From the NCBI GenBank assembly GCA_035277905.1, contig DATEJO010000036.1, positions 8,638 through 72,637 on the forward strand: a stretch of 64,000 nucleotides of DNA. Direction: 5' to 3'. This DNA comes from Candidatus Sulfotelmatobacter sp. GTDB taxonomy: Bacteria; Acidobacteriota; Terriglobia; Terriglobales; Acidobacteriaceae. Shown here one piece after another: positions 9,658 through 61,970 of the stretch; the stretch's first letter is position 1; each line of letters starts with the position of its first letter. The translations under genes and the position numbers were made by a program. The notes beneath the pieces were generated by a model, which made no database searches, was not told the origin of the DNA, and worked only from the letters and a program-made list of their open reading frames with translations.

Positions 9658-9803
9658 AAAAAATACTCCTCCTAAATTGTTTGTTGATTGGTTTGTCCCA
9701 GAATTACAGAGAATGCGTCGAAGGGCCCGCAAAAAAACTTGGCACATTATGTTCGCGGGAACGGCAAGTGTCAATTGGTGGTTGGCGTTTGCATGCTAGC
9801 GTC

Positions 9804-10016
9804 ATGGGCAATGACCACCCCCCCAGTCTGACCGAGTACTGGCATTCGCCACAGCTCGGCTTGAACCTGCTCTCGATGCGCAGCAGCCCCTTCTTCGGGA
9901 AGCAAACCTTCACTATCACGGAATTGAGTGTGGGGGAGCCCGATCCCAAACTCTTCGAGATCCCGGCGGGCTACGCTGTTAAAGACCAACGTAAGAGCGC
10001 GCCGATCTCGCAATAA
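9804..10016 (+). pseudogene. Possible 5'-truncated remnant of a hypothetical secreted protein (C-terminal ~65 aa only)
   Basis: The short ORF ending ...TITELSVGEPDPKLFEIPAGYAVKD looks like the conserved C-terminus of longer hypothetical proteins I recall from soil bacteria. No room is left for an N-terminal part, because the start region of the divergent beta-helix gene occupies it. Confidence 0.3.
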
Positions 10017-21383: not shown

Positions 21384-23012
21384 CTATTTGTCTTCAGCTT
21401 CCATCGTCCCCTCAGCATTTCTCTCGGAGTCGTTATCTTTCGAATGAAAATCGAGGCCAAAATGGGGCTCGGATTGGGTGCCCGTAATCTTGAATGGCAC
21501 CTCCGTACCGTACCCATTCTTGCTAAGGAATGGATCTACGGCTTTTAGAAGGAGGGATTTCCAGCCGGTGGTCATCTGAGAGACCTTGGCGTTGAGCTGA
21601 AGTTTTCCGTGAAAATCGAAGGTCTTCCCGTCGAGGCTGTAATTGCCGCTGACCTTCGCGCGCGTGCCTGGCACTTCGAACCGAAGGGAGGAAAAGGAAA
21701 GCAGGCCTTGTTGAAGTTGGAAATCGCCGCTCAAGTCTGAGCCAACTTTGATCGTCGCGGCTTGCGGCACAAGCTTCGGTTCGCCAAGGGTTCGCAGGCT
21801 TAAGGCGTCGATTCGGGTCTGGAGCTTTTCATTCGTGAAATGAGCAGAGGGGAGATGAAAGTTGCCGGAAAGCCTGAGCCTATCCGACACATCGGCTTCT
21901 CCGGGCGGTAGGCTCAAGCGGGCATTCATTTCAACCCGGCCAGTCATGATGGGCGGCTCAGTGCGCACTCCTAGTTGCAGTAAATCCTGAATCCTGGCAT
22001 TGCCCAGAGTCACCTTGAGTTCAATGTCGTGGCCGTGCGGACTGCTTGTGCGCACAACTCTTCCGACGGCTGTGAAAGATGAATCGAGGACTCGCGCGTT
22101 TACCGGATCGAGATACGTATCGCCGTCCGTGCCATCCACAATCGCGTGAAACTGCGTGTGCAGCGGCACGTCATGGCCCGTAACGGCGAGGTGGAAATCC
22201 GGCGTGTCAGTCTCGCCCGTGACTTCGATACGCCCGAGCGTCCCGCCGTACCGGCCTGTTGACGAGAGGATACCTCCAATTCCCTTCAGAGTAGAAAGAT
22301 CTGCATGATTGAACGAATACTCACCCTCGACGGCCGAGTTGCGGGGATCCGTTTCGTTCAGAGGGCCGAAATAGCCCGTGGAATGGATGTTTCCCACCGG
22401 TTTCGGATTGATCAAGTTTGCATCAAATTGCAGCGGCCGAGCGGGCCCGATGTCTCTCATCTGCAACCGGCTGATGTCGAACTCGAGTGGCGCTTTGCCA
22501 GCCTTATCGGTATTGACGATCAGTTTCGTATCCATGCAGAGAAAATGGCTTACAAAGATGCTCATCTTCCCGCCACGCCGCCGCAATTTGGTCATCTCCG
22601 CACGGTCGTTCTTAGGCGGTATATTCATCGTGAGGCCGCTGATGAAAACTGTGTTGACGTACATCGGCTCACGGAACAGATTGCGCAATGCGGTTTGAAA
22701 ACGAAATGAGCGGACTGCAATCAGCGGTTGGATTCCGCTTTCCGATGGGTTGGGATCGGTCGCGCCAAAGATCTTAAGACCCTTGCCCTCTACATTGATG
22801 CCGTTTTCGATCCAGACGTGAAGTTCGGCCAGATCGACCCGGCTGTGAAAGCGGGTGGAGAGCGTTTCAATAACCCGGGTCCGAAGAATCGGCTCAGCCC
22901 GAACTATCACGATCCGAACAGAAATGCCGACAAGCGCAAAAATGCCAATGCTGATTCCGAGGAACCACTTCCATCTGCTGGATAAAGTGCGCAACGGCAT
23001 CAGTCCGTCCAA
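21384..23012 (-). CDS. AsmA-like / DUF748-like membrane-anchored beta-rich protein
   Basis: 542 aa with an N-terminal TM anchor (WFLGISIGIFALVGISV) followed by a long beta-rich region. The family assignment is from recollection only. The start is either the TTG at 23012 or the ATG at 23000. Confidence 0.6.
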   Translation of the reverse strand: MDGLMPLRTLSSRWKWFLGISIGIFALVGISVRIVIVRAEPILRTRVIETLSTRFHSRVDLAELHVWIENGINVEGKGLKIFGATDPNPSESGIQPLIAVRSFRFQTALRNLFREPMYVNTVFISGLTMNIPPKNDRAEMTKLRRRGGKMSIFVSHFLCMDTKLIVNTDKAGKAPLEFDISRLQMRDIGPARPLQFDANLINPKPVGNIHSTGYFGPLNETDPRNSAVEGEYSFNHADLSTLKGIGGILSSTGRYGGTLGRIEVTGETDTPDFHLAVTGHDVPLHTQFHAIVDGTDGDTYLDPVNARVLDSSFTAVGRVVRTSSPHGHDIELKVTLGNARIQDLLQLGVRTEPPIMTGRVEMNARLSLPPGEADVSDRLRLSGNFHLPSAHFTNEKLQTRIDALSLRTLGEPKLVPQAATIKVGSDLSGDFQLQQGLLSFSSLRFEVPGTRAKVSGNYSLDGKTFDFHGKLQLNAKVSQMTTGWKSLLLKAVDPFLSKNGYGTEVPFKITGTQSEPHFGLDFHSKDNDSERNAEGTMEAEDK

Positions 23013-29111: not shown

Positions 29112-30353
29112 ATGCCATCCTCGCAGGCAGCAGCGTCTTCCGCAAGAACTCAGGAAGCTTCAAGCTCTGCCAACCTTCTCACTTGGGCTGCGTACGCTTC
29201 CTTTCTCCCGATCGGAATCGCGAATGTGCTTCTCGGACCCATGCTCCCGGTGCTTTCCACCCGGTGGTCCCTGGACTACTCGCAAGCCGGAGCCCTTTTC
29301 ACGGACCAATACATCGCTGCAACCATCGCAGTAGCACTGTCCGGTTTGGTCGTCGCCTTCCGCGGATTCCGTTTCTCAATCAAGTTCGGACTTGTACTTA
29401 CCGGCGCATCCCTGGCTTTCCTATTTACCGGCCCCAAAGCCCTTGGCATTGCATGTATCGCTGGACTCGGCGCAGGGCTTGGAATCGCCGTTCCCGCTGC
29501 AAATCTGCTGGTCGCTGAATCGAATCCGAAACAGCGGGGCGCAAGACTGACTTGGCTGAATTTCTGCTGGAGCGCGGGAGCGGTGACCTCACCATTTCTC
29601 GTAGCGGCCGCGCTCAAGGCTCACCGCATTCCGTTTTTCCTTGCGTTGCTCTCTGCCTGCTGTCTGCTAGTTGCGGTTGGATTCGCGCTGATGCCCAGAT
29701 CCGTCGTGGAACCGCCGGTCGCAACTCATCCGCGAATCGAAGTATTTCCCATCGTTCACTCCAGGCTGTTGCCTTTCTTGTCTCTGGCGGCCGTGTTCTT
29801 CATTTATGTGGGTACGGAAAACGGATTCGGGGGATGGGTCGCGTCCTACTCAAAGACACTCGGCACGGTCAGTCCGTCGACATCGCTGATCACGCCTTCG
29901 TTTTTTTATGCGTCGTTGATGGCCGGTAGACTATTAGCTCCGGTCCTGCTTCGACGCACGAAAGAGGTCATCCTCGTGCGCGTAGGACTCATCTTCGCAT
30001 GCGCCGGAACGGGTGGCCTGATGCTTTCGCACGAACTTTCCGGCGTGCTCCTCAGCGCCTGCGCCGCAGGATTCGGCCTTTCCTGCGTCTATCCGATTTC
30101 GATCGGGATGTTGTCCAGAGAATTCGGGCCGGCCTCATCACAGATCGCCGCCTTGATGTTCGTATTGTCGAACATCGGAGGAGCATTGCTTCCCTGGATC
30201 GTTGGCTTGGCCGGGACTCGATTCGGAACACTCCAGGCAGGCCTGTTTGTGCCTCTGCTCGGCTGCGCAGCCATGTTTGTTCTCTACCTTCCGAAGTGGG
30301 ACAGCAATGTGGTTGTCGGCGGCCTGCACAGTGCCGGTCGACAAATTTACTGA
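29112..30353 (+). CDS. MFS transporter
   Basis: 413 aa with ~12 TM segments and an MFS-like loop motif (ESNPKQRGARLTWLN). Its 3' end overlaps the 3' end of the convergent nucleotidyltransferase gene by 7 nt. Confidence 0.8.
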   Translation: MPSSQAAASSARTQEASSSANLLTWAAYASFLPIGIANVLLGPMLPVLSTRWSLDYSQAGALFTDQYIAATIAVALSGLVVAFRGFRFSIKFGLVLTGASLAFLFTGPKALGIACIAGLGAGLGIAVPAANLLVAESNPKQRGARLTWLNFCWSAGAVTSPFLVAAALKAHRIPFFLALLSACCLLVAVGFALMPRSVVEPPVATHPRIEVFPIVHSRLLPFLSLAAVFFIYVGTENGFGGWVASYSKTLGTVSPSTSLITPSFFYASLMAGRLLAPVLLRRTKEVILVRVGLIFACAGTGGLMLSHELSGVLLSACAAGFGLSCVYPISIGMLSREFGPASSQIAALMFVLSNIGGALLPWIVGLAGTRFGTLQAGLFVPLLGCAAMFVLYLPKWDSNVVVGGLHSAGRQIY

Positions 30354-31546
30354 GGGACCACCTTCGCTGCCAACCGACACAGGCGCACCACGCGGTATAA
30401 AGGGAACAACGCGCCGGGAAGGCGAACAATTGCCCAATCTCCTGGGCCGGGCGTCCAAACCAGACGAGACAGGAAGCGCAACCGGTCGAGCGTTCTTTCG
30501 CGTAACCGCCACACAAGCCGAAAATAGGCGGGAGACTCGACGTCATATTCTGTCTCGCTCTCGATGTATCCACTGATCTCATCCACTAGCGCCGGCACCT
30601 CGTTGTCCCGCGGCAGATTCGCGATCGCATCGGGAATCGGGGCGGCGAGAAGCCGATTCACAAGAAAGGCCGCTACACACAGGATGCGCGCGATCCCGAG
30701 TTCTTCAGCCTGGGATGTGATCTGGTGCCAGTCAAGTTGAGGAAGAGTCATCATGCGCGCTAAATCGCAAAGCCAGATGAGCCGTCCCCAGACATGCTTA
30801 GCAGCGTGCAAGGTGAGAATGATGAAGAGGTCTTCGAGTGCGGGACTCTTGATTTCACGTCCGGCAACGGTGGTCGTCACGGCGCGCCGAAAAACTGCGT
30901 TCAGGTCGAAATCGACGGAGTAAAAACCCGCCAGGATCGCCCACTGCACTTCCAGCAGGTTTTTTCCCGCCGGCGCATCGAACGCAGATTCATATCCGGA
31001 CTTCAAATAAGCTCTTTCCTGAGCAGCCGAGAAATTCTCGTGGGACACGAAACCGAGCGGAGATAGGTTCTGACGTATTCGTGCAAGATCCCATGGATGG
31101 ATCAGCAGATCGATATCGCCAGACTGGCGTAGAGCGATATCCCCATAGAGTGTCTCTGCCAGCGGGAGCCCTTTGTACGGAATTACTTCGATTCCAGCCG
31201 CGTCAAGGCAGTCGAGGATGCTTATCAACTCGCGAGATAGAAATAGGGCCTTATGCAGATTGGCTTGATATTGCTGCATGAGGAAGCGCATGGGCTCCGC
31301 CGGGACGGCGTCCGCGACGCTCGAGAGGGCCTGAAATAACAGTGGGTGAACTCCGTGCCGATCAGCGAGATTGAATACTTCATTCCACCGAAGAGGCTGC
31401 GCGAGGATAGATCGAAGCCGCGCACTTTTTACCTCGGGTGAGTCTATGGAGGATACTGCGAGAAGAAGCAGCCACTCGTTGCCGCGCGTCGAGTCTTTCA
31501 CGGCGATCTCGGCCGATATCTCCGTAGTCGACAGTGCTGAAGTCAA
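30347..31546 (-). CDS. Uncharacterised nucleotidyltransferase family protein (PF14907/NTP_transf_5-like)
   Basis: ...IPYKGLPLAETLYGDIALRQSGDIDLLIHPWDLARIRQNL...LTLHAAKHVW... is the pattern I associate with PF14907. The TTG start lies 2 nt after the stop of the upstream rSAM gene. Confidence 0.75.
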   Translation of the reverse strand: MTSALSTTEISAEIAVKDSTRGNEWLLLLAVSSIDSPEVKSARLRSILAQPLRWNEVFNLADRHGVHPLLFQALSSVADAVPAEPMRFLMQQYQANLHKALFLSRELISILDCLDAAGIEVIPYKGLPLAETLYGDIALRQSGDIDLLIHPWDLARIRQNLSPLGFVSHENFSAAQERAYLKSGYESAFDAPAGKNLLEVQWAILAGFYSVDFDLNAVFRRAVTTTVAGREIKSPALEDLFIILTLHAAKHVWGRLIWLCDLARMMTLPQLDWHQITSQAEELGIARILCVAAFLVNRLLAAPIPDAIANLPRDNEVPALVDEISGYIESETEYDVESPAYFRLVWRLRERTLDRLRFLSRLVWTPGPGDWAIVRLPGALFPLYRVVRLCRLAAKVVPQ

Positions 31547-31548
31547 TC

Positions 31549-32658
31549 TTACGCAATCGCACCCGCGGGCAGCGCGGCGGGACGAATCTGCACGAGACTA
31601 GCTCCCGTGCGTTTCTTGGCCAGCATATTAGCCGACGGAATTCCAGTTCTGGCGAACGACTTCTCGCAATCCTGCGAGGACGGCCCACGCATATTGCCCT
31701 CCATATATGCAAGACCGGGGCATCGCGTGCAAGTCGCGGCGTGCGTACAGGAAGAACAGGTTGTGAGATCTTTAATGCGAATTGATCGAACATCATTCAT
31801 CAGGTCGGAATGCCGCCAGATGTCGATGAACCGTTGCTTCCTTACGTTTCCAGTCGGGAGCGGGAATTGGACACAGGGAAAAACATCGCCATAGGGCGAA
31901 ACGTAGCACGCAGAATGTCCCGCGCTACACGGCGTGGCGTCAAGCTCGCTCTCGCCAGCCTTTGCCGGAATCGCACAGAATTCGTCGACATCGCCGACCA
32001 GCGCCGAATCCCGAAACACGTCGCGCAATGCGTTTGTGTCGACTCCAAGGCTCAGAACCGAACGATTGCCGTCCATCATCGGCGTTACTGTCGGATCAAG
32101 CGTACATTCAACGCCCAATTCCGCCGCCAAGGCTCGCACGCCCGGATAGTCCAGCATGTTCTGGGTCATGAGTACGTTCGCAATGATGACTTTCAATCCC
32201 TGCGACTTGAGGAATCGAATCGCGTTGATCGATCGCTTCAGCGAACCCGGAATCAGCGTGATGGCGTCGTGCACTTCCGGACGATGAGAGTAGATGCTGA
32301 TCTGGATCGATTCAACATCCAGATCTCGAATTCGCGCTGCCTCGCGCTCACGGATCAATACGGCATTCGTCTTCAACTTGACGCAGAACATCAGGCGTCG
32401 TGCGTGCTCCAGAATCTCGAAAAAATCCTTACGCAGAAAAATTTCTCCGCCGCTCATGGTCAGCACAAAAACGCCGGCCTCTGCCATTTCGTCGAGGAGA
32501 TGCTTGATTTCCGCCGTGGTCATCTCGCCGTGATCGTTGTGATCGAGATAGCAATGGACACACTTCTCGTTGCAACGATACGTAAGGTCGAGTTGAACAT
32601 TCAGCGGAATGTTCAACGCCAACGCTTTATTGGTCATCTCCTCGAGCAGTCCACTCAT
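31549..32658 (-). CDS. Radical SAM / SPASM-domain peptide-modifying enzyme
   Basis: CNEKCVHC (CxxxCxxC) near the N-terminus, and a C-terminal Cys-rich auxiliary-cluster region (CSAGHSACYVSPYGDVFPC...CSSCTHAATCTRCPG). The start overlaps the PqqD stop as ATGA (32655-32658). Confidence 0.9.
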   Translation of the reverse strand: MSGLLEEMTNKALALNIPLNVQLDLTYRCNEKCVHCYLDHNDHGEMTTAEIKHLLDEMAEAGVFVLTMSGGEIFLRKDFFEILEHARRLMFCVKLKTNAVLIREREAARIRDLDVESIQISIYSHRPEVHDAITLIPGSLKRSINAIRFLKSQGLKVIIANVLMTQNMLDYPGVRALAAELGVECTLDPTVTPMMDGNRSVLSLGVDTNALRDVFRDSALVGDVDEFCAIPAKAGESELDATPCSAGHSACYVSPYGDVFPCVQFPLPTGNVRKQRFIDIWRHSDLMNDVRSIRIKDLTTCSSCTHAATCTRCPGLAYMEGNMRGPSSQDCEKSFARTGIPSANMLAKKRTGASLVQIRPAALPAGAIA

Positions 32659-32972
32659 TTGGAATTGTCCGTTCCGGAATAGCTCTGGTGAATCGGCGCT
32701 TCCGATACCTGCAAAATTTCGTGGCTGGCCAGTTCGCGGGCAAGACTCTCGGCGTCATGAATCGCTTCTTTCGGATCCACGTCGAACTCGCTGCAGATCT
32801 TTTGCGTGACAATTTCTTCTAGCGGAGTTTCACCATCCGCGGATTGCCACAGAATTGTCGCGGTCTTATTCAAGGTGAAAAGCGTGGAATCGCGTCCGGA
32901 CATGATCATCATCTCGCCGCCCAGACCGCGCGCCGCCACTCGGGGATTTCGTGCCACATATATGCTGCTCAT
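32655..32972 (-). CDS. PqqD-family peptide chaperone (RiPP recognition element)
   Basis: ~105 aa with ...GGEMMIMSGRDSTLFTLNKTATILWQSADGETPLEEIVTQKICSEFDVDPKEAIHDAESLAREL, the typical PqqD pattern. The ATG at 32970-32972 overlaps the kinase stop as ATGA. The ORF-track start at 32987 is an alternative. Confidence 0.85.
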   Translation of the reverse strand: MSSIYVARNPRVAARGLGGEMMIMSGRDSTLFTLNKTATILWQSADGETPLEEIVTQKICSEFDVDPKEAIHDAESLARELASHEILQVSEAPIHQSYSGTDNSK

Positions 32973-33784
32973 CCAATCAACTCCCATACCCGGCTATCCG
33001 GAAAAAACGTCAGCCGGCGAACCGGCACCCGGCTCACGAATTCAAATGCAGAATGAAAAGTTGCCTGAACCAGTTCCTCATCCTCCGCGAAAAAAAGGAG
33101 ATTGGCAAGCAAAGAACGCGCTGCCTCGGCTTGGGCTACAGGCTCGATGCGATTTTCCGCTCCCTTCGACAGAAGATAGAGCACAGAAACCGGCGCCGAA
33201 ACGTTTTCTCCCAGTTTGGCAAGCTCCCCCGTAAAAGGAGTTCCGTAGGCGATATACCCCTCATTCTGTTTGCGCACGTAGGAGATTTCGTCGGTCAACA
33301 GCGTCACATCAGGAGGAGCCAGCCTCGAAATCGTGGTTTTACCCGCTTCTGAGACGCCGGCGAACAGGAATGCCTTTCCGTTACGGATCGCGCTCGCAGA
33401 GTGCAGAAGAAATCCGCCTTGTCTAGCGAGAACAAGTGTGTGAACGATGCGGAACACCGCGTCAATCGAATATGGATTTGCAGTTTGCCTAATCCAGCCG
33501 CGGCGCTTTGCCGGTTCCCATTCGGCCCGAAAATCGCCACGCTGCAACCTCCAGCGGCCATGCTGCTGAGTGACACGAACATCATCGTCCGGATTCGGAA
33601 AGTGACTGGACGAGATATCAACATCGAATTCAATTTCTGGGCGGTCGGATCGGCTGATAAATCCGGAATAGCGATCCTGCAGTATGGCGATGAAGCCAGC
33701 GTCGGTCGTATTCACGCGCACTGGCATCCCCCCGATCTCAATGACGAGGCTAAGAGGCACGACTTCGGTCATTAATTCTGGCAA
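32969..33784 (-). CDS. HPr-kinase-related (HprK-like) P-loop kinase
   Basis: LLHSASAIRNGKAFLFAGVSEAGKTTISRL has a Walker A motif in the context typical of HprK C-terminal-domain homologues found in RiPP clusters. The start is the TTG at 33784 or the ATG at 33772. Confidence 0.8.
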   Translation of the reverse strand: MPELMTEVVPLSLVIEIGGMPVRVNTTDAGFIAILQDRYSGFISRSDRPEIEFDVDISSSHFPNPDDDVRVTQQHGRWRLQRGDFRAEWEPAKRRGWIRQTANPYSIDAVFRIVHTLVLARQGGFLLHSASAIRNGKAFLFAGVSEAGKTTISRLAPPDVTLLTDEISYVRKQNEGYIAYGTPFTGELAKLGENVSAPVSVLYLLSKGAENRIEPVAQAEAARSLLANLLFFAEDEELVQATFHSAFEFVSRVPVRRLTFFPDSRVWELIG

Positions 33785-33807
33785 GTGGAATTGTCAGCTT
33801 TCAATTC

Positions 33808-34167
33808 TCAAGGTCGTAAAAATCTGTGGACGCCTACCACCGCACAAGCGGCGAAATCGGACCGACGAACGTGGCACATCGGCCGCAAGCTGCGATTCGA
33901 TCCTATGTGTTCCGTCGAATAGAGACACGTGGGATGCCAACTCTGCCCAGGCTGGGTGACAGGATTTCGAAATTCTATCATTTTCGCGAAGCGCCAGTGC
34001 GGCAATCTTTGAAAGGCCTCGCTCTCTGCCCCGCGGGGGAAGGGCTTGAAACCGGAACGTCCGCAAATGCTGACAGCAACGATTTCTTTTTTCGATGCGG
34101 CCATGGTTCGCAATTTCGCGGATAGCCCGTACAATAGTTGGAATCCTTCTTTGTTGATCATCGCCAT
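33808..34167 (-). CDS. Unsupported ORF immediately upstream of the kinase gene (candidate substrate/precursor or non-coding)
   Basis: 119-aa ORF ending 24 nt before the HprK-like start. Possible internal starts are a TTG (codon 12) preceded by AAGGA, and the ATG at 34102-34104. It is Cys/Trp/His-containing, has no recognised family and mixed codon usage. Confidence 0.2.
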   Translation of the reverse strand: MAMINKEGFQLLYGLSAKLRTMAASKKEIVAVSICGRSGFKPFPRGAESEAFQRLPHWRFAKMIEFRNPVTQPGQSWHPTCLYSTEHIGSNRSLRPMCHVRRSDFAACAVVGVHRFLRP

Positions 34168-34209
34168 AATTCAACGAACGAGAGACGTGTGGAGGCGTAG
34201 CAAACCAGA

Positions 34210-36891
34210 TTGGACGGATACGAGACAGTAGAACAAACGGATCAGAACTCCTCACCTGCGGCAGTCAGCAATGTGCTCACCGCCGAGGAAGTTGCGAATC
34301 TGGCTGCTGAAGGCGGCCAGTCGGCAGAGACGTTAATGAACCTCGTGGCCTTGATCGCTAAGAGGTTCCGCACCGATGTGTGTTCGGCATACTTGCTTGA
34401 ACCAGATCGCGCCAACCTCGTGTTGGCCGCCACTGTCGGGCTTCGTCGCGAGTGCATCGGCAACTTGCGGATGGCCGTCCACGAGGGCTTGACAGGCCTT
34501 GTCGCGGAACAGGTTCATCCGGTAGCAGTAAGCCAGGTAAAGAATCATCCTCGGTTCAAATACTTCCGCGACGCCGGAGAGGATGCCTACCAGTCTTTCT
34601 TAGGCGTGCCGTTGATCGATCGCGGCATCCTGCAGGGCGTTCTAGTGGTGCAGACGATTGAAGCGCGCGTCTTTAGCGACGACGAAATCAGGATGTTGTC
34701 GGAGGTCGCGAGACAAGTCGCTCCGGTTGTGAGCGAAGCTCGGACGCTCGATCGTTTCATCGCGCCCCTTCAGGAACGTCTCTGGGCGCTGGGGCGAAAT
34801 CTGTGGTGGAGTTGGGATCATAATTCCGCAAGCCTCTTCCTTGACCTTGATCCGGCGCGGTGGAGTGAGCTGAACCACAATCCGATCGCTCTGTTGAGCG
34901 AACTTCCGCTCTCGAAGCTTGAAACGCGAGCTGCCGAGCTCATGCTCCATAGTCGCGTGAACTACGCCTACCGCCGGATGCTCGAATATCTCGAGGCGGA
35001 TCGTACCTGGGGCACGCGGCACGCTGGCGTTCTCCGTCCGCATCCTGTCGCATATTTTTCCGCCGAGTTCGGATTGCACGAGTCACTACCGGTGTATTCC
35101 GGCGGTCTGGGAGTTCTTGCGGGCGATCACATCAAAAGCGCATCCGATCTCGATATTCCACTCGTAGGCATCGGACTGTTTTACGGCCAGGGATATTTCC
35201 GCCAGCGTCTCGATCTCAACGGCTGGCAACGCGAAGAGTACCTGGAGACGGACGTCAATCAACTACCGATGGAAGTCGCGATCGGAAGAGATGGGCGCCC
35301 CGTGGTAGTTGAGATCGAAACTCGCAGCGGCCGCATTCAGGCAAAGGTCTGGCGAGTCAAAGTTGGACGCCGCGATCTCTTGCTGCTCGATTCGGATGTG
35401 GAAGGCAACGCCCCTGAGGATCGCGAGCTGACGTCACGGCTGTATGGCGGCGATCTGCGCATCCGGATCCGACAGGAAGTGTTGTTGGGAGTCGGCGGCC
35501 TGCGCGCCCTGAAAGCTCTGGGCATCTCTCCTGGCGTTCTTCACCTCAACGAAGGCCATAGCGGATTCGCGGTTTTGGAAGCGATCCGCATGCGTATGGA
35601 GGATGAAGGCATCGGATTCGATGCAGCCGTCCCACGAGTCTCCCGAGAAGTCGTCTTCACGACGCATACTCCGGTTCCTGCTGGCCACGACCGCTTCGAT
35701 GCCAAACTGGTGGAAGAACATATCGGACCGCTCCGCGAACAATTAGGCCTGTCCCAGGAAAGTCTGCTGGGTCTCGGCCGCGAGAACACCAGCAATCAGG
35801 ACGAACTCTTCTGCATGACCGTTCTCGCGCTTCGCCTCTCGCGTCGCGCGAACGCTGTCTCGGCGCTGCACGGTGAAGTTTCTCGTGCCATGTGGACCGG
35901 ACTCTATCGAGGCAAGCCGGAGGACGAAGTTCCCATCGGACACATCACCAACGGCGTGCACGTCCCATCGTGGCTCGCTCCCCAGATGTTCCGACTCTAC
36001 GACCGCCATCTCGGAACCGACTGGTTACAGCGAGGCAGCGAAGCGAAGACCTGGCTGGGAATCGAGAATGTCGATGACGGCGAGCTTTGGGAGACGCACC
36101 TGAACCTCAAGTCGCAGCTGATTGAGTTCGTTCGTAAGCGGGCGGTAGATCAGGCCGAGCGGAGAGGCGAGTCCCACGAAGTGTTGCAGCGCCTTGAGCG
36201 CGTTCTGAGCCCTGATGCTCTCACGATCGGCTTTGCTCGCCGCTTCGCGACGTATAAGCGAGCGAATCTGATCCTGACGGACATCGAACGCCTCGCATCG
36301 ATGGTGAACGATCCGAATCGTCCTGTGCAGTTTGTCTTTGCCGGCAAAGCGCACCCGCTGGACGAACCGGGCAAGCGCGTTCTGCAGCAGATTGCCGAAC
36401 TGATGCGCGACCCGATGTTCCGCGACAAGTTCGTTTTCGTCGAGGACTACGACATCAACGTCGGCCGCCGCTTCGTGCAAGGCGTAGACGTGTGGCTGAA
36501 TAATCCACGGCGTCCGCTGGAAGCTTCAGGAACCAGCGGCCAGAAGGTCGTTCTCAACGGGGGTCTCAATCTCTCCATTCTGGACGGATGGTGGGCCGAA
36601 GCGTTTGATGGCATCAACGGATTTGCCATTGGAAGCGGCAAAACTCATTCCAACATGAGCGTCCACGATTCCCGCGATGGGGAGGATCTGTTACGCGCAC
36701 TTCGGGAAGAAGTGATACCGCTCTATTACCAGCGCGATCGCGATGGCCTTCCTCGGGGCTGGATCAAGCGCATGAAACGGACGATCCGAACGCTGGGGTG
36801 GCGTTTCAACGCAGACCGCATGGTGATGGATTACACGCTGAAGTGCTACGTCCCGGCAGCGGGAGGCACGTCGAGCGACATGCGCGGTTAA
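34210..36891 (+). CDS. glgP: Alpha-glucan (glycogen/maltodextrin) phosphorylase with N-terminal GAF domain
   Basis: N-terminal ~170 aa are GAF-like (...SAYLLEPDRANLVLAATVGL...GLTGLVAEQ...FLGVPLIDRGILQGVLVVQT...). The remainder is GT35 alpha-glucan phosphorylase (YFSAEFGLHESLPVYSGGLGVLAGDH, EASGTSGQK with the PLP Lys). TTG start. Confidence 0.9.
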   Translation: MDGYETVEQTDQNSSPAAVSNVLTAEEVANLAAEGGQSAETLMNLVALIAKRFRTDVCSAYLLEPDRANLVLAATVGLRRECIGNLRMAVHEGLTGLVAEQVHPVAVSQVKNHPRFKYFRDAGEDAYQSFLGVPLIDRGILQGVLVVQTIEARVFSDDEIRMLSEVARQVAPVVSEARTLDRFIAPLQERLWALGRNLWWSWDHNSASLFLDLDPARWSELNHNPIALLSELPLSKLETRAAELMLHSRVNYAYRRMLEYLEADRTWGTRHAGVLRPHPVAYFSAEFGLHESLPVYSGGLGVLAGDHIKSASDLDIPLVGIGLFYGQGYFRQRLDLNGWQREEYLETDVNQLPMEVAIGRDGRPVVVEIETRSGRIQAKVWRVKVGRRDLLLLDSDVEGNAPEDRELTSRLYGGDLRIRIRQEVLLGVGGLRALKALGISPGVLHLNEGHSGFAVLEAIRMRMEDEGIGFDAAVPRVSREVVFTTHTPVPAGHDRFDAKLVEEHIGPLREQLGLSQESLLGLGRENTSNQDELFCMTVLALRLSRRANAVSALHGEVSRAMWTGLYRGKPEDEVPIGHITNGVHVPSWLAPQMFRLYDRHLGTDWLQRGSEAKTWLGIENVDDGELWETHLNLKSQLIEFVRKRAVDQAERRGESHEVLQRLERVLSPDALTIGFARRFATYKRANLILTDIERLASMVNDPNRPVQFVFAGKAHPLDEPGKRVLQQIAELMRDPMFRDKFVFVEDYDINVGRRFVQGVDVWLNNPRRPLEASGTSGQKVVLNGGLNLSILDGWWAEAFDGINGFAIGSGKTHSNMSVHDSRDGEDLLRALREEVIPLYYQRDRDGLPRGWIKRMKRTIRTLGWRFNADRMVMDYTLKCYVPAAGGTSSDMRG

Positions 36892-36921: not shown

Positions 36922-37638
36922 ATGGAAACTCAAAGAGGACGAGGCACAGTTCTAGGCCTCGTCCCGGCCCGCGGTGGATCGAAAGGCATTTCGCGAAAAA
37001 ACGCTCGTTTGCTGGCAGGCAAGCCCTTGCTGGCCTACACGGCAGATGCCGCGCGGGGCGCAACGGGCTTGTCTCGAATCCTGCTCAGCACCGACGATCC
37101 CGAAATTGCTTCGATCGGCAAAGCAGCCGGTCTAGAAGTTCCGTTCCTCAGGCCTGCCGAACTTGCTGTCGACTCGACTCCAATGATCGACGTAGTACTG
37201 CACGCCATCCAGTGGGTTCGGGATCAGGGGCTGAGTTACGATGCAGTCTGTCTTCTGCAGCCCACCAGCCCGCTGCGCAGCTCAGCGAGTATTGACTACT
37301 GCATTTCTCTCTTATGGGAACACGATGTAGACAGCGTCATGTCGGTGCGCCCCGTTCCGACGGAATACAATCCATACTGGGTTTATTTCGAGGATTCTGG
37401 CGGATTACTACGACCGAGCATGGGTGACAAAACCGAAGTCCCCTGTCGGCAGCAACTCCCCCGCGCCTACCACGCTGATGGGAGTGTATTCCTGGCCCGG
37501 ACGGAAAAGATCCTCAAGGAGCATTCCCTGAAATGCAAGCGGATGCTGGGAGCAATATCTCCCGAGCACGAAGCAGTTGATCTGGATACAGAAGAACAGT
37601 GGCGGGCGCTGGAAAGAAAGCTGCGGCACGAATCTTAA
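36922..37638 (+). CDS. Acylneuraminate (nonulosonate) cytidylyltransferase, NeuA/LegF family
   Basis: LGLVPARGGSKGISRKNARLLAGKPLLAYT...LLSTDD...VPFLRPAELAVDSTPMIDVVLHA is the CMP-NulO synthetase signature. Confidence 0.85.
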   Translation: METQRGRGTVLGLVPARGGSKGISRKNARLLAGKPLLAYTADAARGATGLSRILLSTDDPEIASIGKAAGLEVPFLRPAELAVDSTPMIDVVLHAIQWVRDQGLSYDAVCLLQPTSPLRSSASIDYCISLLWEHDVDSVMSVRPVPTEYNPYWVYFEDSGGLLRPSMGDKTEVPCRQQLPRAYHADGSVFLARTEKILKEHSLKCKRMLGAISPEHEAVDLDTEEQWRALERKLRHES

Positions 37639-37686
37639 CGGCAATTCTGATGTGGGATAAAGAACCTGACCTCGGCTTTATTACTG

Positions 37687-38883
37687 TTACGCGCTCTTTC
37701 CTCGTCGGATCTCGGCCAGCTGAGCAATCGATGCAATAACATACCCCTGATCAGATTCGCTTAAACCAACGGAACATGGCAGGCTCACTGCCTGCGAGTA
37801 AAGGCGGTCCGCCGTCTCGCACGAAGAGGCCTCGCATCGGGAGTGGACCGGGCTGCGATGCATAGGTTGCCAGAGGGGACGTGTTTGAATCGATCTGGCC
37901 TCAAGTTCTTTGATGAGGCATCTGGAATCCATCCCAAAATGTTCTTCGTTCACGAGGATGGTGTAGAGCCAAAAGATACTTTCAGCCCACGGTGCTGCGG
38001 GCATTGTGACAACCCCGGGAATGTCCTTCAAACCGTTGCGGTAGCGTTCGGCAATTGTCCGCTTCGTATCGATATAATCGTCAAGCCTCTCGATTTGAGC
38101 GCAGCCAAGCGCGGCCTGAATGTTGGTCAGACGGTAGTTATAGCCGATCTCGTTGTGCACATATTCAATGGGATCGTCTTTCGCCTGGGTAGTCAGATAT
38201 TTTGCCCGGCTTGCCCATTTCGGATTTGAGGTGACGATCGCCCCGCCTCCGCCGGTCGTGATGATTTTGTTGCCATTGAAGCTGAAGCAGGCGATATCCC
38301 CGATCGTCCCCGTGTGCTTCCCCTTGTACTTCGCGCCAAGACATTCTGTCGCATCCTCAATCACCACGAGGCCAAATTCCCGCGCAACAGACAGGATCGG
38401 ATCCATGTCCGCCGGATGACCAAGGATATGCACAGGCAGAATCGCCTTGACGCGTCTTCCCGTTCTGCGATTACGTAGTTCCCCGCGAGAGAATTCGCAA
38501 TTCATTCGCAAGAAGTTTGTCAGCTTCTGCGTGTCGATCTGCCAGCAGTCCGGTTCTGCATCAATCAGAACGGGCCACGCTCCCGCATACCGGATAGCGT
38601 TCACAGGAGCAATAAAGGTGAGAGTGGAGACGAGGACCTCATCATCCGGCTCAACCCCACTGACGAGAAGCGCCACGTGCAAAGCCGAAGTGCCACTGCT
38701 GGTCGCGACAGCGAAAGGCGCTTGGACCGCGCTGGCGATCAGGCGCTCGAATCGTCCGACATACTCCCCGACCGAAGAAACCCACCCCGTATCGAGGCAA
38801 TCCTTCACATACTTCCACTCATTCCCCTGAATTTCGGGGACCGAGAGCGGAATGGAAATCGACTCTGTTTTCAACTCGCCCAT
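37687..38883 (-). CDS. DegT/DnrJ/EryC1/StrS-family PLP aminotransferase (LegC-like)
   Basis: GNEWKYVKDCLDTGWVSSVGEYVGRFE at the N-terminus, and the PLP-lysine context FSFNGNKIITTGGGGAIV. Confidence 0.9.
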   Translation of the reverse strand: MGELKTESISIPLSVPEIQGNEWKYVKDCLDTGWVSSVGEYVGRFERLIASAVQAPFAVATSSGTSALHVALLVSGVEPDDEVLVSTLTFIAPVNAIRYAGAWPVLIDAEPDCWQIDTQKLTNFLRMNCEFSRGELRNRRTGRRVKAILPVHILGHPADMDPILSVAREFGLVVIEDATECLGAKYKGKHTGTIGDIACFSFNGNKIITTGGGGAIVTSNPKWASRAKYLTTQAKDDPIEYVHNEIGYNYRLTNIQAALGCAQIERLDDYIDTKRTIAERYRNGLKDIPGVVTMPAAPWAESIFWLYTILVNEEHFGMDSRCLIKELEARSIQTRPLWQPMHRSPVHSRCEASSCETADRLYSQAVSLPCSVGLSESDQGYVIASIAQLAEIRRGKSA

Positions 38884-38897
38884 GCTATAGAACGCGA

Positions 38898-39881
38898 CTA
38901 AACTACATAGACTTTTGATTGGTAGTACTCGATATTGGAACGCATCCAGGCGATGGTTTTCGCCAATCCGTCTTGCAAACTCACTTCAGGACGCCAACCG
39001 GCAAGCTGTTCGGCTTTGTCGCTCATCGCACAAAGCCGCTCGACCTCACTTCCAAGAGGCCGAATGCGATCGTTTTCCTGGACAATATGGCATTCCGCTC
39101 CGATCATCCCGCAAATCGTCCTTGCAAGTTCGCCAATCGATATCTCTTTGCCCGAGCCCAAATTCATGACCTGCCCTACAGCTTTTTCGCTTTCTGCATT
39201 CATGAGAAAACCGCGCACCGTGTCCGCGACATAATTGAAATCCCGGGTGGGAGACACATTGCCGATGCGAATCGGCTCATTTGCGAGAGCTTGTCCAATG
39301 ATTGTCGGAATAATCGCGCGAGCCGATTGGCGAGGACCGTAGGTATTGAAGGGCCGCACGATGCTAACCGGCAGTTCAAAAGAACGGTGAAAGGATTCTG
39401 CCAGCTTATCCGCGCTAATTTTGGTCGCTGAGTACGGCGACTGAGCCTGCAACGGGTGCTCCTCTGAGATCGGAATCTCTCTTGCAGTTCCATACACCTC
39501 GCTGGTTGAAGTATGCACGATTCGCTCTACCCCACTCCGCAGCGATTCCTGAAGGATGTTCAGCGTCCCAACAATATTCGTGCTTACGTACGAGGAGGGC
39601 GAGATATAGGAGTAAGGAATGGCAATAAGCGCGGCCAGATGAAATACTACGTCAACGCCCTTGAGAGCGACCCGGACGCTGTCAATCTCACGAACGTCGC
39701 CCGCGACGATCTCCATCTCTTCCTTGTACTCGCTCTGATCAAGCCAACCTTTCCGGCCTTGCCCGTTGTAATGCACCAATGCTCGAGTCTTTGCCCCCGC
39801 GTGGATAAGCGCTTCGGCAAGGTGGCTGCCGATGAAACCTCCCGCACCCGTTACCAGGACGTTCTTGTTTCGCCAGTTCAC
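38898..39881 (-). CDS. NAD-dependent NDP-sugar 4,6-dehydratase/epimerase (SDR; LegB-like)
   Basis: Rossmann motif VLVTGAGGFIGSHL and catalytic YSATK. The GTG start at 39879-39881 overlaps the upstream stop as GTGA. The ORF-track start at 39962 would overlap the upstream gene by 85 nt. Confidence 0.9.
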   Translation of the reverse strand: MNWRNKNVLVTGAGGFIGSHLAEALIHAGAKTRALVHYNGQGRKGWLDQSEYKEEMEIVAGDVREIDSVRVALKGVDVVFHLAALIAIPYSYISPSSYVSTNIVGTLNILQESLRSGVERIVHTSTSEVYGTAREIPISEEHPLQAQSPYSATKISADKLAESFHRSFELPVSIVRPFNTYGPRQSARAIIPTIIGQALANEPIRIGNVSPTRDFNYVADTVRGFLMNAESEKAVGQVMNLGSGKEISIGELARTICGMIGAECHIVQENDRIRPLGSEVERLCAMSDKAEQLAGWRPEVSLQDGLAKTIAWMRSNIEYYQSKVYVV

Positions 39882-40948
39882 TGCCTCGCCCCGATCTGGT
39901 GCACATCCTCTTGCGCACGCTGATAATCCTCGTGACGCCCAATATCCAGCCAGTACTCCCAAACCGGAAAGCTGATGACCTTGCCACCTTTTTTGACCAC
40001 CTTGTCGATCAGTTCCGGCATATCGAATTTTTGGCCAGGAGGAACGAGTTGCCGTGCCGATGTCGAGACAAGATATATACCCGCATTAACAAAAAACTTA
40101 AGCGTCGGCTTCTCCGTGACACCGGTGACGTTCACTCCGTCAGTCTCAACTACTCCGTATGGAACATCAAAACCGTACTCACGAACTGCAACGGTCATAT
40201 CTGCGGAGTGCTCAAAATGAAAATTCAGAAGGGCACGGAAATCCAGCCCCGTCAGAATATCCCCGTTAATAACGAGCAGAGGCTCTTCACCCGAAATCAG
40301 AGAAAGCCCCCCAGCCGTACCCATTGGCTGATCTTCCGCGACGTAATCTACGGGAATTCCGAATGCCTCTCCATCACCGAGATGGGTAGAAATCTGCTCT
40401 GCTTTGTAATGGGTGCTGATGTTCACCTTCGAAACACCCGCTTGTTTGAGCTGCTCCATCAAGCGATCAATCAGGGGGCGATCACCAACCCGGAGTAATG
40501 GCTTTGGAATCTCGGCAGTCAGCGGCATCAGACGCTTGCCGTAACCGCCGGCCATTACGACAGCGTGAACCAAGCCGGGCGGTGCGTCGACCAGTTCGTC
40601 GAGCATCGCCAGATCCACTACTCGTCCGTCGTTATCGACAAGCGGAACCTGCCGGATGGAACGCAGCTTCATTTCTCTCACGATCAATTCGTTTGTGCTG
40701 CTAACCGGAAGACTGACGGGGCTGGGCTTGCCTTGCGAGCGGTATCGATGAATTAGATCTGCCACCGGAAGGTCGAGACTCAGTCCAGCCAAGACGGCCC
40801 GGCGCAAATCGCCGTCGGTGAGAGTTGCAATCAGATGCCTATCCTCGTTAACCACAAGCGCAATGCCTTTAGCGCCGCGGTCGATGCAGAGCATCGCCGA
40901 TCGAAGAGTGGACTCTTCTGTGATCAGGACTTTCTCGACTTGAAACAT
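39878..40948 (-). CDS. CBS-pair + sugar-1-phosphate nucleotidyltransferase (PtmE-like)
   Basis: N-terminal CBS pair (...IALVVNEDRHLIATLTDGDLRRAV...QVPLVDNDGRVVDLAMLDEL) followed by VVMAGGYGKRLMPLT (GxGxRL nucleotidyltransferase signature). The ATG at 40946-40948 is preferred to 41086. Confidence 0.85.
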   Translation of the reverse strand: MFQVEKVLITEESTLRSAMLCIDRGAKGIALVVNEDRHLIATLTDGDLRRAVLAGLSLDLPVADLIHRYRSQGKPSPVSLPVSSTNELIVREMKLRSIRQVPLVDNDGRVVDLAMLDELVDAPPGLVHAVVMAGGYGKRLMPLTAEIPKPLLRVGDRPLIDRLMEQLKQAGVSKVNISTHYKAEQISTHLGDGEAFGIPVDYVAEDQPMGTAGGLSLISGEEPLLVINGDILTGLDFRALLNFHFEHSADMTVAVREYGFDVPYGVVETDGVNVTGVTEKPTLKFFVNAGIYLVSTSARQLVPPGQKFDMPELIDKVVKKGGKVISFPVWEYWLDIGRHEDYQRAQEDVHQIGARQ

Positions 40949-41137
40949 GAATGCAGGCACTGCCAGGAAATGCGGAGAATCGTTGCTGAATCTTTTGGTT
41001 CGCGCTTCAACCGCAAAGTTCAATAATATTATCATCGAGCCTGGGGCTATTGCAGAACTCTTGGTTGCTTCGTTTCTAAAAAGCATGCGAGTTCAATTCG
41101 ATGAATCTGCGGAAGTGATCGGAATCAACCTCTTAGC

Positions 41138-42187
41138 ATGAGATCTTTCGAAGTAGGTAACAAGCCGATTGGTGAGGGCTGCCCGTGTTTCGTGATTGCC
41201 GAAGCTGGCGTGAATCACAATGGCAGTCTGGACCTTGCGAAGAAACTCATCGATGCCGCCGCTGCAGCCGGTGCTGACGCGATCAAGTTCCAGACATTTA
41301 AGGCCGAAAAACTGATCTCCGCCACCGCCCCCAAAGCGGAATATCAGAAAGAAACCACCGGAACGGCCGAACGGCAACTCGAAATGATTCGCCGGCTGGA
41401 AATGCCGCCGGAGATGACGCGGGCCGTGGCCGCCCACGCCGCTTCTCGTGGGATTCTTTTCCTCTCCACAGGTTTTGATGAAGAAAGCATAGACCTGTTG
41501 GATGAGATTGGCGTACCAGCATTCAAGATCGGCTCAGGCGATCTCACGGCTCTACCGCTATTGGAGTTCATAGCACACAAGAAGAAACCAGTAATTCTGT
41601 CGACCGGAATGTCATACCTCGAAGAAGTCCAGGCCGCTGTCCAGGTGCTGCGAGAGGCCGGCTGCAAGGAACTCGCGCTTCTGCAATGCGTCTCGAGCTA
41701 TCCGGCAAACCCAGAGGACGCGAATTTGAACGTGCTCAAGACACTGCGGGATGCATTCAAAGTTCCGGTTGGCTTTAGCGATCATTCTCTTCGCAATGAG
41801 ATCGCAATCGCGGCTGTCGCGCTTGGAGCCAGTATTATTGAAAAGCACCTTACGCTCGATACAAACCTTCCAGGCCCGGATCATCGTGTTTCCTTGACTC
41901 CCGACGACTTCAGAAATCTAGTTCAAGCAATCCGCGTAGTAGAGGCTGCTCGCGGAGACGGGATCAAGAGACCACAGGTGGGCGAGAGAAACGTGCGCGA
42001 GGTTGCCCGGCGAAGCCTCGTCGCTGCTTGCACTATTCCTTCCGGCACCGCGGTCACCCGTGAAATGTTGGCCTTCAAACGCCCCGGAACCGGCATCTCG
42101 CCGACACAGTGGAAAGAAGTAATCGGCAAACGAACAATTCGTGAGATTCCATCTGACGCGTTGATCAGTTTGAAGGACCTCGCATGA
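41138..42187 (+). CDS. N-acetylneuraminate/legionaminate synthase family (NeuB/LegI)
   Basis: FVIAEAGVNHNGSLDLAKKLIDAAAAAGADAIKFQTFKAEKL plus a C-terminal SAF/antifreeze-like domain (...GTAVTREMLAFKRPGTGISP). Confidence 0.9.
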   Translation: MRSFEVGNKPIGEGCPCFVIAEAGVNHNGSLDLAKKLIDAAAAAGADAIKFQTFKAEKLISATAPKAEYQKETTGTAERQLEMIRRLEMPPEMTRAVAAHAASRGILFLSTGFDEESIDLLDEIGVPAFKIGSGDLTALPLLEFIAHKKKPVILSTGMSYLEEVQAAVQVLREAGCKELALLQCVSSYPANPEDANLNVLKTLRDAFKVPVGFSDHSLRNEIAIAAVALGASIIEKHLTLDTNLPGPDHRVSLTPDDFRNLVQAIRVVEAARGDGIKRPQVGERNVREVARRSLVAACTIPSGTAVTREMLAFKRPGTGISPTQWKEVIGKRTIREIPSDALISLKDLA

Positions 42188-61966: not shown

Positions 61967-61970
61967 GGGA

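Follow-up and report, generated by a model that had tools for sequence, protein, structure and literature searches.

A truncated Terriglobia gene cluster joins a ScmC-family kinase-like protein and its PqqD partner to a radical SAM/SPASM enzyme and points to a candidate class of modified peptides

Introduction

Phosphorylated lasso peptides provide the closest described precedents for the gene system considered here, a set of four adjoining minus-strand genes in a 64,000-nucleotide stretch of DNA from Candidatus Sulfotelmatobacter sp. (contig DATEJO010000036.1, positions 8,638 to 72,637; hereafter the window). These genes encode a ScmC-family kinase-like protein, a PqqD-type recognition element (RRE) for peptides that are ribosomally synthesized and modified post-translationally (RiPPs), a radical SAM (rSAM)/SPASM enzyme and a PF14907 nucleotidyltransferase-fold enzyme. 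The C-terminal Ser of lasso precursors is a substrate for HPr-kinase homologues (PMC8498205), and experiments have proven BsfK to be a peptide Ser kinase, one that the PqqD-type RRE BsfB1 strongly stimulates and for which H148, G163, K169, S170 and D186/D187 are critical (PMC10368454). In pseudomycoidin, PsmN depends on D134/D136 and is required for the addition of a hexose to phospho-Ser (PMC6993621). No rSAM-linked type appears in a 2025 list of phosphorylated RiPPs (PMC12639078). An earlier note on the window had likened the kinase and nucleotidyltransferase of this operon to lasso-tailoring enzymes, an analogy that the same literature backs (PMC8498205, PMC6993621, PMC10368454). The RiPP-style logic that it saw in the operon is also upheld here.

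A second point of reference is the SynChlorMet (SCM) cassette, which has been defined bioinformatically (TIGRFAMs/NCBIfam). Its models are ScmC (TIGR04249), ScmD (TIGR04248), ScmE (TIGR04250) and ScmF (TIGR04251), it includes two rSAM/SPASM proteins, and to our knowledge, going by the model text, no precursor has been assigned to it. The NiSOD maturation protease, a cytoplasmic S26-family enzyme (TIGR02754), is an S26-like precedent for the removal of an N-terminal propeptide; a review of RiPP leader proteases makes no mention of S24/S26 enzymes. Our literature search found no publication on the present system, nor any naming SynChlorMet, PF27840 or the TIGR accessions; many subscription papers lie outside that search, and an earlier description is possible. 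In surveys of soil and peat Terriglobia, many clusters get no further than the bins 'RRE-containing' or 'ranthipeptide' (PMC13642348).

Results

The window holds the enzyme half of a conserved cluster

The four genes are as follows:
32969-33784, minus strand: ScmC-family P-loop kinase-like protein, 271 amino acids (aa) from TTG 33784 or 267 aa from ATG 33772
32655-32987, minus strand: PqqD-type RRE, 110 aa, or 105 aa from ATG 32972
31549-32658, minus strand: rSAM/SPASM enzyme, 369 aa
30347-31546, minus strand: PF14907 (NTP_transf_5) nucleotidyltransferase-fold enzyme, 399 aa from TTG 31546 or 384 aa from GTG 31501

All four open reading frames (ORFs) are intact and retain their catalytic motifs. 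Read directly from the sequence, an ATGA at 32969-32972 overlaps the ScmC stop with the PqqD start, a second ATGA at 32655-32658 does the same for the PqqD stop and the rSAM start, and the rSAM/PF14907 junction is TAAGATTG at 31544-31551. The packing described earlier, with both overlaps and a TAA-2nt-TTG junction, is thus present in full, with the third start uncertain. Public gene callers start ScmC at ATG 33772 (267 aa) and PF14907 at GTG 31501, 15 codons downstream of the TTG; a database protein (P0391) annotated 'nucleotidyltransferase family protein [Candidatus Sulfotelmatobacter sp.]' is 100% identical to the window protein across those 384 aa. Because the public start is GTG 31501, the apparent 2-nt junction may be a gap of ~45 nt. 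A promoter and terminator scan around the operon, including its upstream side, gave no signal above chance.

To place these genes, 80 loci each were retrieved from the genomes of GTDB species and from metagenomes. The order of genes was mapped in 168 related loci, 88 of them from genomes or assemblies and 80 from metagenomes, and occupancy was counted in the 113 with enough flanking DNA to be evaluable. This string of genes recurs across related loci far beyond chance. PqqD lies directly 3' of ScmC in all 113 evaluable loci, and the rSAM gene follows PqqD in 111. An S24/S26-type peptidase is present in 101, a small precursor ORF in 89, PF14907 in 76 and a large protein of ~750 aa in 74. The usual order is the ~750-aa secreted protein, a 52-61-aa precursor, an S24/S26 Ser/His peptidase, ScmC, PqqD, rSAM/SPASM and, often, PF14907. 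One intact relative (L001) illustrates it, with a Peptidase_S24-like gene of the 155-166-aa type upstream of ScmC, preceded by a 55-aa ORF and by a protein of 749 aa that has no Pfam domain. The window genes are the enzyme half of this cluster, which is conserved in Terriglobia (Acidobacteriota) and, in roughly two-thirds of loci, also carries PF14907. Four placements of the PF14907 gene are seen: downstream, upstream on the same strand, divergent and convergent.

The two halves of the cluster can come apart. Three loci (L115, L128 and L153) have two convergent units, one of ScmC, PqqD and rSAM and the other of PF14907, peptidase, precursor and large protein, which shows that the substrate half and the enzyme half are separable. 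A distant, high-GC locus (L089, 7983-12757) has ScmC and PqqD overlapping by 17 nt, followed by an apparently secreted protein of ~1,200 aa, and no rSAM gene; because this pair occurs there without an rSAM gene, we take ScmC-PqqD to be the basic unit. A deep clade of 10 loci keeps the peptidase, ScmC, PqqD and rSAM genes together with PF14907, and has no precursor within 10 kb. A divergent precursor was sought between the PF14907 and peptidase genes of this clade (L067/L070-L086), and no conserved ORF was found there.

Several variants are recorded here as side observations. The ~750-aa protein (5044-7293 in L001) carries a hydrophobic anchor at its N-terminus and matches a beta-propeller only faintly; its gene directly precedes that of the precursor, and it may be a partner or target of the peptide. 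One locus (L078) carries two cassettes of large protein and precursor with identical cores. A compact variant from a sulfate-methane transition zone (L101, 5637-10356, and L157) has the order GalU, DUF362 protein, ScmC, PqqD, rSAM and a 59-aa precursor, the last with a longer multi-Cys core that ends in R-S-S. L101 was considered as a true SynChlorMet cassette and ruled out, its scores being under the cutoffs. In nine loci (L067, L070-L073, L075, L080, L082 and L086) ~380 bp separate divergent PF14907 and peptidase genes, at about -950 to -570 from ScmC; this spacer contains recurring peptide-like strings in shifting frames and may be a regulatory element.

Relatives encode a precursor family with a predicted cleavage site and a C-terminal Ser

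Across 116 unique sequences, the precursor has a variable N-terminus followed by K-K-P-Y-x-K-P-x-F-R-x-E-x-V-F-[V/E]-T-x-A-L-x and an 18-aa core, C-G-K-x7-C-x4-[K/R]-x-S. Ala stands at -3 in every one of them, and S, A, T or G at -1 in 107. Two Cys are found in 113, with nine residues between them in 89 and seven residues after the second in 97; the core is 18 aa long in 86. The C-terminal residue is Ser in 114 of the 116, the other two being read-through ORFs. A pN/pS of 0.19 shows purifying selection on the leader block. The lasso leader motif Y-x-x-P-x-L spans -17 to -12 (PMC10368454), and the Y-x-x-P-x-F of the present precursors resembles it, with Tyr at -18 if the cut falls before the first Cys and at -17 if it falls one residue earlier. 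The same design, again ending in Ser, recurs in ScmC systems whose ScmC is only 32-39% identical (L101, L132, L142, L148 and L157), where the precursor is sometimes downstream of rSAM. Because the C-terminal Ser is kept in loci that have no PF14907 (e.g. L033-L055), it tracks ScmC rather than PF14907. No Pfam or NCBIfam model matches the precursor; its profile finds 6,178 database clusters, all called 'hypothetical protein' or unnamed and none with a Pfam domain.

The intact peptidase genes of the relatives encode 155-166 aa and lie directly upstream of ScmC. Their products carry G-x-S-M-x-P in the counted sequences and H-R in 76 of 80, replacing the bacterial K-R, and inspection by eye shows no clear membrane anchor at the N-terminus. 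Among curated models the archaeal/ER-type signal peptidase I TIGR02228 scores best (44.1 bits, cutoff 51.85); the NiSOD maturation protease model TIGR02754 gives 24 bits (cutoff 63.25). A signal-peptidase-type match fits the A-x-[S/A/T] site of the precursor. In one locus (L040, ~9369-10010) the precursor ORF runs into the peptidase ORF as a 214-aa fusion, which is either real or a sequencing error.

A deletion beside glgP removed the substrate half

Upstream of ScmC, the window contains:
33811-33922, minus strand: remnant of an S24/S26-type leader-peptidase gene, found by tblastn with the L001, L002 and L004 peptidases
33785-34209, no strand: deletion scar between the glgP start and the ScmC start, 426 bp
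34210-36891, plus strand: alpha-glucan phosphorylase (glgP) with an N-terminal GAF domain and DUF3417

The remnant consists of ~24 N-terminal codons (33851-33922) and ~20 C-terminal codons (33811-33870) in different frames, and the catalytic core is gone. The 426 bp between glgP and ScmC compare with 3,272 bp in L009 and ~3.3 kb in intact relatives generally. A deletion of ~2.9 kb beside glgP has removed the large protein, the precursor and the peptidase core, and it is the same in near-identical contigs: L006 and L007, whose proteins are 99% identical, have the same short gap. DNA alignment of the region is too diverged to give exact breakpoints. A hidden Markov model (HMM) of the precursor found no match across the whole 64-kb window (best match E=0.48). 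Two ORFs of 119 and 153 aa within 33785-34209 were considered as a hidden precursor and rejected as out-of-frame debris of the peptidase gene. The window is very probably a 5'-truncated copy of the conserved cluster. The earlier description of a system without a precursor or a protease must therefore be set aside: the relatives encode both just upstream of ScmC, and both were deleted here. Because the precursor and the peptidase have been deleted and fragments of the latter remain, the window holds half a cluster.

Erosion of this kind has occurred more than once. A tree of ScmC and rSAM places the window among other loci that are partly eroded. The large protein is missing from L002-L005, which retain the peptidase; L004 and L005 show no precursor either, and in L002 a decayed trace of it is left. 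L011 retains just the C-terminus of the peptidase, its large protein also being gone. In L068 the deletion extends into ScmC, leaving it too truncated for placement on the tree. Because the intact L009 is nested among the eroded loci, there have been at least two independent losses.

Relative to L006 and L007, the four enzyme genes show 10-11 synonymous and 5-7 non-synonymous differences (omega ~0.16-0.2), which hints at continued constraint after the deletion, on few sites. Only this comparison is usable, deeper dN/dS comparisons being saturated at synonymous sites. Either the enzymes of the window act on a precursor whose gene lies elsewhere in the genome, or they are a recent relic. Because the two halves are separate units in L115, L128 and L153, action in trans is plausible.

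ScmC has the catalytic residues of proven RiPP kinases

We assign the first protein to the ScmC family (PF27840), with a predicted phosphoenolpyruvate (PEP) carboxykinase/HprK fold that carries the catalytic residues of proven RiPP kinases. Family membership comes indirectly, through the precomputed matches of homologues: every listed homologue at 77-99% identity carries Pfam PF27840 'ScmC', including one that is 99% identical to the window protein (P0001), and the local Pfam copy did not report the model. The best NCBIfam match is likewise ScmC (TIGR04249), at 38.1 bits and under the cutoff of 125. There are more than 6,800 homologues, many of them 77-84% identical and from Terriglobia and 'Ca. 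Sulfotelmatobacter' assemblies; in a 50%-identity cluster library, 203 clusters match at E<=1e-30 and 2,568 at E<=1e-10. Hpr_kinase_C (PF07475; gathering threshold 33.3 bits) has no match to the protein at E<=0.01. By the HprK-related kinase A/B and HPr-rel-A system models we mean NCBIfam TIGR04352, TIGR04355 and TIGR04353; the window protein fails HprK_rel_A (19.4 bits) and HprK_rel_B (17.8 bits), whose cutoffs are 200.

A profile search against PDB sequences gave only marginal P-loop matches, so folds were compared instead. In Foldseek, the full length of the AlphaFold model (pLDDT 95) matches ATP-dependent PEP carboxykinase (E=5e-9, TM 0.55), and part of it matches HprK/P (E=3e-5). In an alignment of 32 diverse members, R112, H128, G143, S145, G148, K149, L163, P183, F184 and W267 are invariant, and D165 and E166 are conserved in at least 90%. 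The Walker A motif GVSEAGKTT (residues 143-151) was quoted by the earlier note, as was CNEKCVHC with C-terminal Cys in the rSAM enzyme, and both are present in the translated ORFs. Comparison with BsfK, whose gene sequence was taken from PMC10368454, gives 45% identity across a 42-residue catalytic core; the ScmC profile scores BsfK at 42 bits, and H128, G143, K149, T150 and D165/E166, all of them invariant or nearly so, align with BsfK H148, G163, K169, S170 and D186/D187. The H...G-x-S-x-x-G-K-T...D-E constellation and its spacing are those of proven RiPP kinases. Because BsfK passes Hpr_kinase_C (37.5 bits) whereas ScmC does not, ScmC is a separate family in the same kinase superfold. The label 'HprK-like' thus holds for the kinase-like fold and catalytic motif, but not for membership of the HprK family or of HprK-related A/B. 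Judged by sequence, with these residues in place and a PqqD gene adjoining through an ATGA overlap, ScmC would be an RRE-dependent RiPP Ser kinase.

The partner enzymes pass their family models

The other three family calls made earlier pass their Pfam thresholds, and only that of Hpr_kinase_C finds no match. The PqqD protein scores 44.8 bits against PF05402 (E=1.6e-11, threshold 23.4). Its best NCBIfam matches are lasso-type PqqD chaperones, all under their cutoffs, and TIGR04353 (HPr-rel-A PqqD) is absent from those matches. The rSAM enzyme scores 77.3 bits against Radical_SAM (threshold 29.5) and 41.6 against SPASM (21.5). Its CNEKCVHC, at residues 29-36, is a CX3CX2C motif (C29, C33 and C36), and eight C-terminal Cys of SPASM type follow at 244, 251, 262, 301, 304, 310, 313 and 331. 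It falls under every NCBIfam equivalog cutoff, including those of MftC (141/265), GeoRSP (109.1/400), ScmE (95.5/400) and PqqE (94.9/381). MftC is the top-scoring curated rSAM model, tied with that of the heme b synthase AhbD. The thioether-synthase models AlbA (91/850) and SkfB-type (71/300) are far under their cutoffs. The closest solved structure by sequence is the thioether-forming sactisynthase SkfB (E=6.5e-17); together with the two invariant Cys of the core, this relationship hints, by analogy, at a Cys-to-carbon thioether of the sactipeptide/ranthipeptide type. Because the equivalogs are all under their cutoffs, the system does not count as a true SynChlorMet cassette or as an HPr-rel-A, GeoRSP, PQQ or mycofactocin system.

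The fourth protein scores 186.8 bits over the full NTP_transf_5 model (threshold 31.2) and carries a D-x-D motif at residues 144-146, within GDIDLL. Its AlphaFold model (pLDDT 87) has a nucleotidyltransferase fold, with the nucleotidyltransferase-like 5uvd, ANT(2'')-Ia (5cfs, 4xje), LnuA and FKRP, a CDP-ribitol phosphotransferase, as its nearest folds in the PDB. Zyubko et al. reported the same ANT(2'') structures (5cfs, 4xje) for PsmN (PMC6993621).

Neighboring genes

Two further features flank the module:
29112-30353, plus strand: MFS transporter, convergent with the operon and overlapping the PF14907 gene by 7 nt
36922-44000: complete nonulosonic-acid (legionaminic/pseudaminic-type) gene set

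The transporter scores 74.6 bits against MFS_1 in Pfam (gathering threshold 33.4), and the 7-nt overlap reported for it agrees with the ORF coordinates. The nonulosonic-acid genes encode a cytidylyltransferase, a DegT aminotransferase, a 4,6-dehydratase/epimerase, a CBS-NTP_transferase, NeuB with SAF, a UDP-GlcNAc 2-epimerase and a PglD-like acetyltransferase. The gene set noted ~3 kb away is thus real, but a functional tie to the operon is unsupported: the window alone has it next to the ScmC module, and each of the 167 other loci lacks that adjacency. The flanks beyond glgP differ among close relatives, and glgP is itself a conserved divergent neighbor of the cluster within the Sulfotelmatobacter subgroup only. 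Elsewhere in the window, three ORFs of 528-562 aa have no Pfam match at E<=1e-5 (3056-4642 and 21384-23012 on the minus strand, 61884-63572 on the plus strand), and a 487-aa protein with NosD/right-handed beta-helix domains (8311-9774, minus strand) is unrelated to the ScmC cluster.

Discussion

A proposed pathway

We propose that the intact cluster would work in five steps. PqqD would bind the conserved lasso-like leader (K-K-P-Y-x-K-P-x-F...) and present the peptide. ScmC, which is translationally coupled to PqqD, would phosphorylate the precursor, most likely on the near-invariant C-terminal Ser. Where it is present, PF14907 would add a sugar or nucleotide-derived group to the phosphate, as PsmN does in pseudomycoidin. 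The rSAM/SPASM enzyme would make one or two cross-links involving the two invariant Cys of the 18-aa core, and the S24/S26 peptidase would cut at the signal-peptidase-like site between A-x-[S/A/T] and C, freeing the core from the leader. Built on analogy, this five-step mechanism taken as a whole is tentative, and we hold it with rather more doubt than conviction. The wider explanation, in which a truncated cluster is combined with the roles assigned above, is the best that we have, and we consider it fairly probable.

A number of points count against this explanation. Every enzymatic role is assigned by analogy. ScmC is under the thresholds of Hpr_kinase_C, of the NCBIfam ScmC equivalog and of HprK_rel_A/B, and PEP carboxykinase, the best match to its fold over the whole length, is no protein kinase. 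The target of BsfK is Ser3 rather than a C-terminal Ser (PMC10368454), so the site of phosphorylation is not fixed by the fold. The best-scoring rSAM model, MftC, describes an enzyme that acts on a C-terminal residue, and because MftC acts at the C-terminus, the invariant Ser could serve the rSAM enzyme. The association with a precursor is strong but not universal, 24 of the 113 evaluable loci having none within ~10 kb, the deep clade of 10 included. No exporter is conserved with the cluster among the conserved neighbor gene clusters. The tblastn E-values of the peptidase remnant are weak (0.1-1.4), although the fragments are collinear and at the expected place. The selection signal amounts to 15-18 substitutions, with 8-9 of the 10-11 synonymous differences in one gene, and PF14907 shows no synonymous against 2-3 non-synonymous changes relative to L006 and L007.

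The last of these figures bears directly on whether the window operon still functions. Having lost its substrate gene and its peptidase, it may be a functionless relic heading to decay, a serious possibility, if one that we would bet against. The 64 kb that hold no precursor, the peptidase reduced to scraps, the progressive 5' erosion of neighboring lineages (L002-L005, L011 and L068), the PF14907 count and the lack of any promoter-like signal above chance upstream all fit such an outcome. Decay is harder to square with four intact ORFs that retain their catalytic motifs, with an overall omega of ~0.16-0.2 since the split from the contigs that share the short gap, and with precursor-less relatives that keep intact enzymes at 16-21% divergence in the ScmC protein. 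The deep clade likewise retains its enzymes without a nearby precursor, and in L115, L128 and L153 substrate and enzyme halves are separate convergent units. A different doubt concerns the chemistry of the intact cluster: ScmC may not be a peptide Ser kinase but another ATP-dependent partner or a small-molecule kinase, with the Ser serving as target or recognition element of an MftC-like rSAM enzyme. We consider this unlikely but not negligible. It would account for the whole-length match to PEP carboxykinase, for the failure of ScmC at every curated kinase-family threshold and for the place of MftC, tied with AhbD, as top curated rSAM model. That MftC score, however, is 141 bits and far under the cutoff of 265, and the catalytic constellation and spacing of ScmC match those of proven RiPP kinases. 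A ScmC-PqqD pair also exists without an rSAM gene (L089), and PF14907, whose only characterized relative acts on phospho-Ser, co-occurs in four arrangements.

Two further readings were weighed. The earlier note pictured a self-contained pathway without precursor or protease, perhaps protein-modifying and perhaps tied to the nonulosonic-acid genes. Nothing else in the window is RiPP-like and the complete sugar gene set does lie ~3 kb away, but the relatives carry precursor and peptidase directly upstream, the window retains fragments of the peptidase gene, and the sugar cluster is adjacent in none of the 167 other loci, which makes this reading very improbable. That the genes are ordinary tailoring genes of a lasso, PQQ or mycofactocin pathway whose remainder lies elsewhere is scarcely credible. 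The best curated PqqD matches are indeed lasso-type chaperones, the leader resembles Y-x-x-P-x-L, and a kinase with a nucleotidyltransferase is a known set of lasso-tailoring genes. Against this, a tblastn search for a BsfB2-like protease found none, either in the window or across the 168 related loci. An Asn-synthetase-type cyclase was found neither among the 10 largest otherwise unannotated window ORFs (3 of them without a Pfam match) nor among the conserved neighbor gene clusters, the related loci not having been scanned with a cyclase query. Both results agree with the earlier remark that the window holds no lasso cyclase or B-protease. The core, with its two invariant Cys, lacks a lasso-like ring-forming design, and the PqqE, MftC and lasso-PqqD models are all under their cutoffs.

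The locus is a damaged copy, and its parent family is large, coherent and unannotated: the database contains 6,000 or more clusters of precursors and a similar number of ScmC proteins. With belief and doubt nearly in balance, we suggest that an undescribed class of RiPPs abounds in the Acidobacteriota of soil and peat and that the window holds a damaged copy of it; the product would have a cross-linked core phosphorylated at its C-terminal Ser, would often be decorated by PF14907 and would be released by a signal-peptidase-type protease, an unusual type of leader protease. If this is true, it offers the first substrate model for the ScmC family and for SynChlorMet-type cassettes, and the ~750-aa secreted protein encoded alongside may act together with the product. 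ScmC (PF27840) and PF14907, both widespread families of unknown function, gain a substrate hypothesis, and a large generic group of clusters gains an anatomy, namely a precursor family, predicted cleavage and phosphorylation sites, and accessory genes. In soil and peat, Terriglobia belong to the most abundant bacteria. The deletion explains why no precursor or protease was found in the window, and it makes the locus a natural experiment on RiPP enzymes after the loss of their substrate gene.

Comparison with known systems

The SynChlorMet cassette shares with this system a ScmC-family protein, a PqqD homologue and an rSAM/SPASM enzyme in one operon. It differs in that all of its models are under their cutoffs here (ScmC 38.1/125, ScmD 17.5/100, ScmE 95.5/400 and ScmF 56.4/400 bits), that there is one rSAM enzyme here rather than two, and that the present cluster has in addition an S24/S26 peptidase, PF14907, a large secreted protein and a defined precursor. 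The sactipeptide/ranthipeptide maturases SkfB, AlbA and PapB share the rSAM domain, a full set of SPASM Cys, an RRE and a Cys-containing core, whereas the RRE here is a separate protein. The relatives' peptidase shares G-x-S-M-x-P and H-R with the ER/archaeal-type signal peptidase I (Ser/His; TIGR02228).

The likeness to the phospho-lasso pathways (PadeK; BsfK/BsfB1/BsfN; PsmK/PsmN) extends over several components: a kinase of the HprK superfold with an H/G/K/[S,T]/D-[D,E] constellation, a PqqD-type RRE, which in the Bsf system stimulates the kinase, a leader of the type Y-x-x-P-x-[L/F], and an 'uncharacterised nucleotidyltransferase' with a D-x-D motif and an ANT(2'')-like fold. The precursors of paeninodin and pseudomycoidin end in Ser, as does that of the relatives described here. 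In contrast, an rSAM/SPASM enzyme and an S24/S26 peptidase stand where the cyclase and the B2 protease would be, the kinase is of the ScmC family and not of Hpr_kinase_C, a model that BsfK passes, and the core, with its two invariant Cys, lacks an Asp/Glu design for ring formation. The system resembles the kinase, RRE and nucleotidyltransferase tailoring of phospho-lasso peptides joined to an rSAM/SPASM maturase. With a BsfB2-like protease found neither in the window nor at the 168 loci, and a cyclase neither among the window ORFs scanned nor among the conserved neighbors, it is not a lasso cluster.

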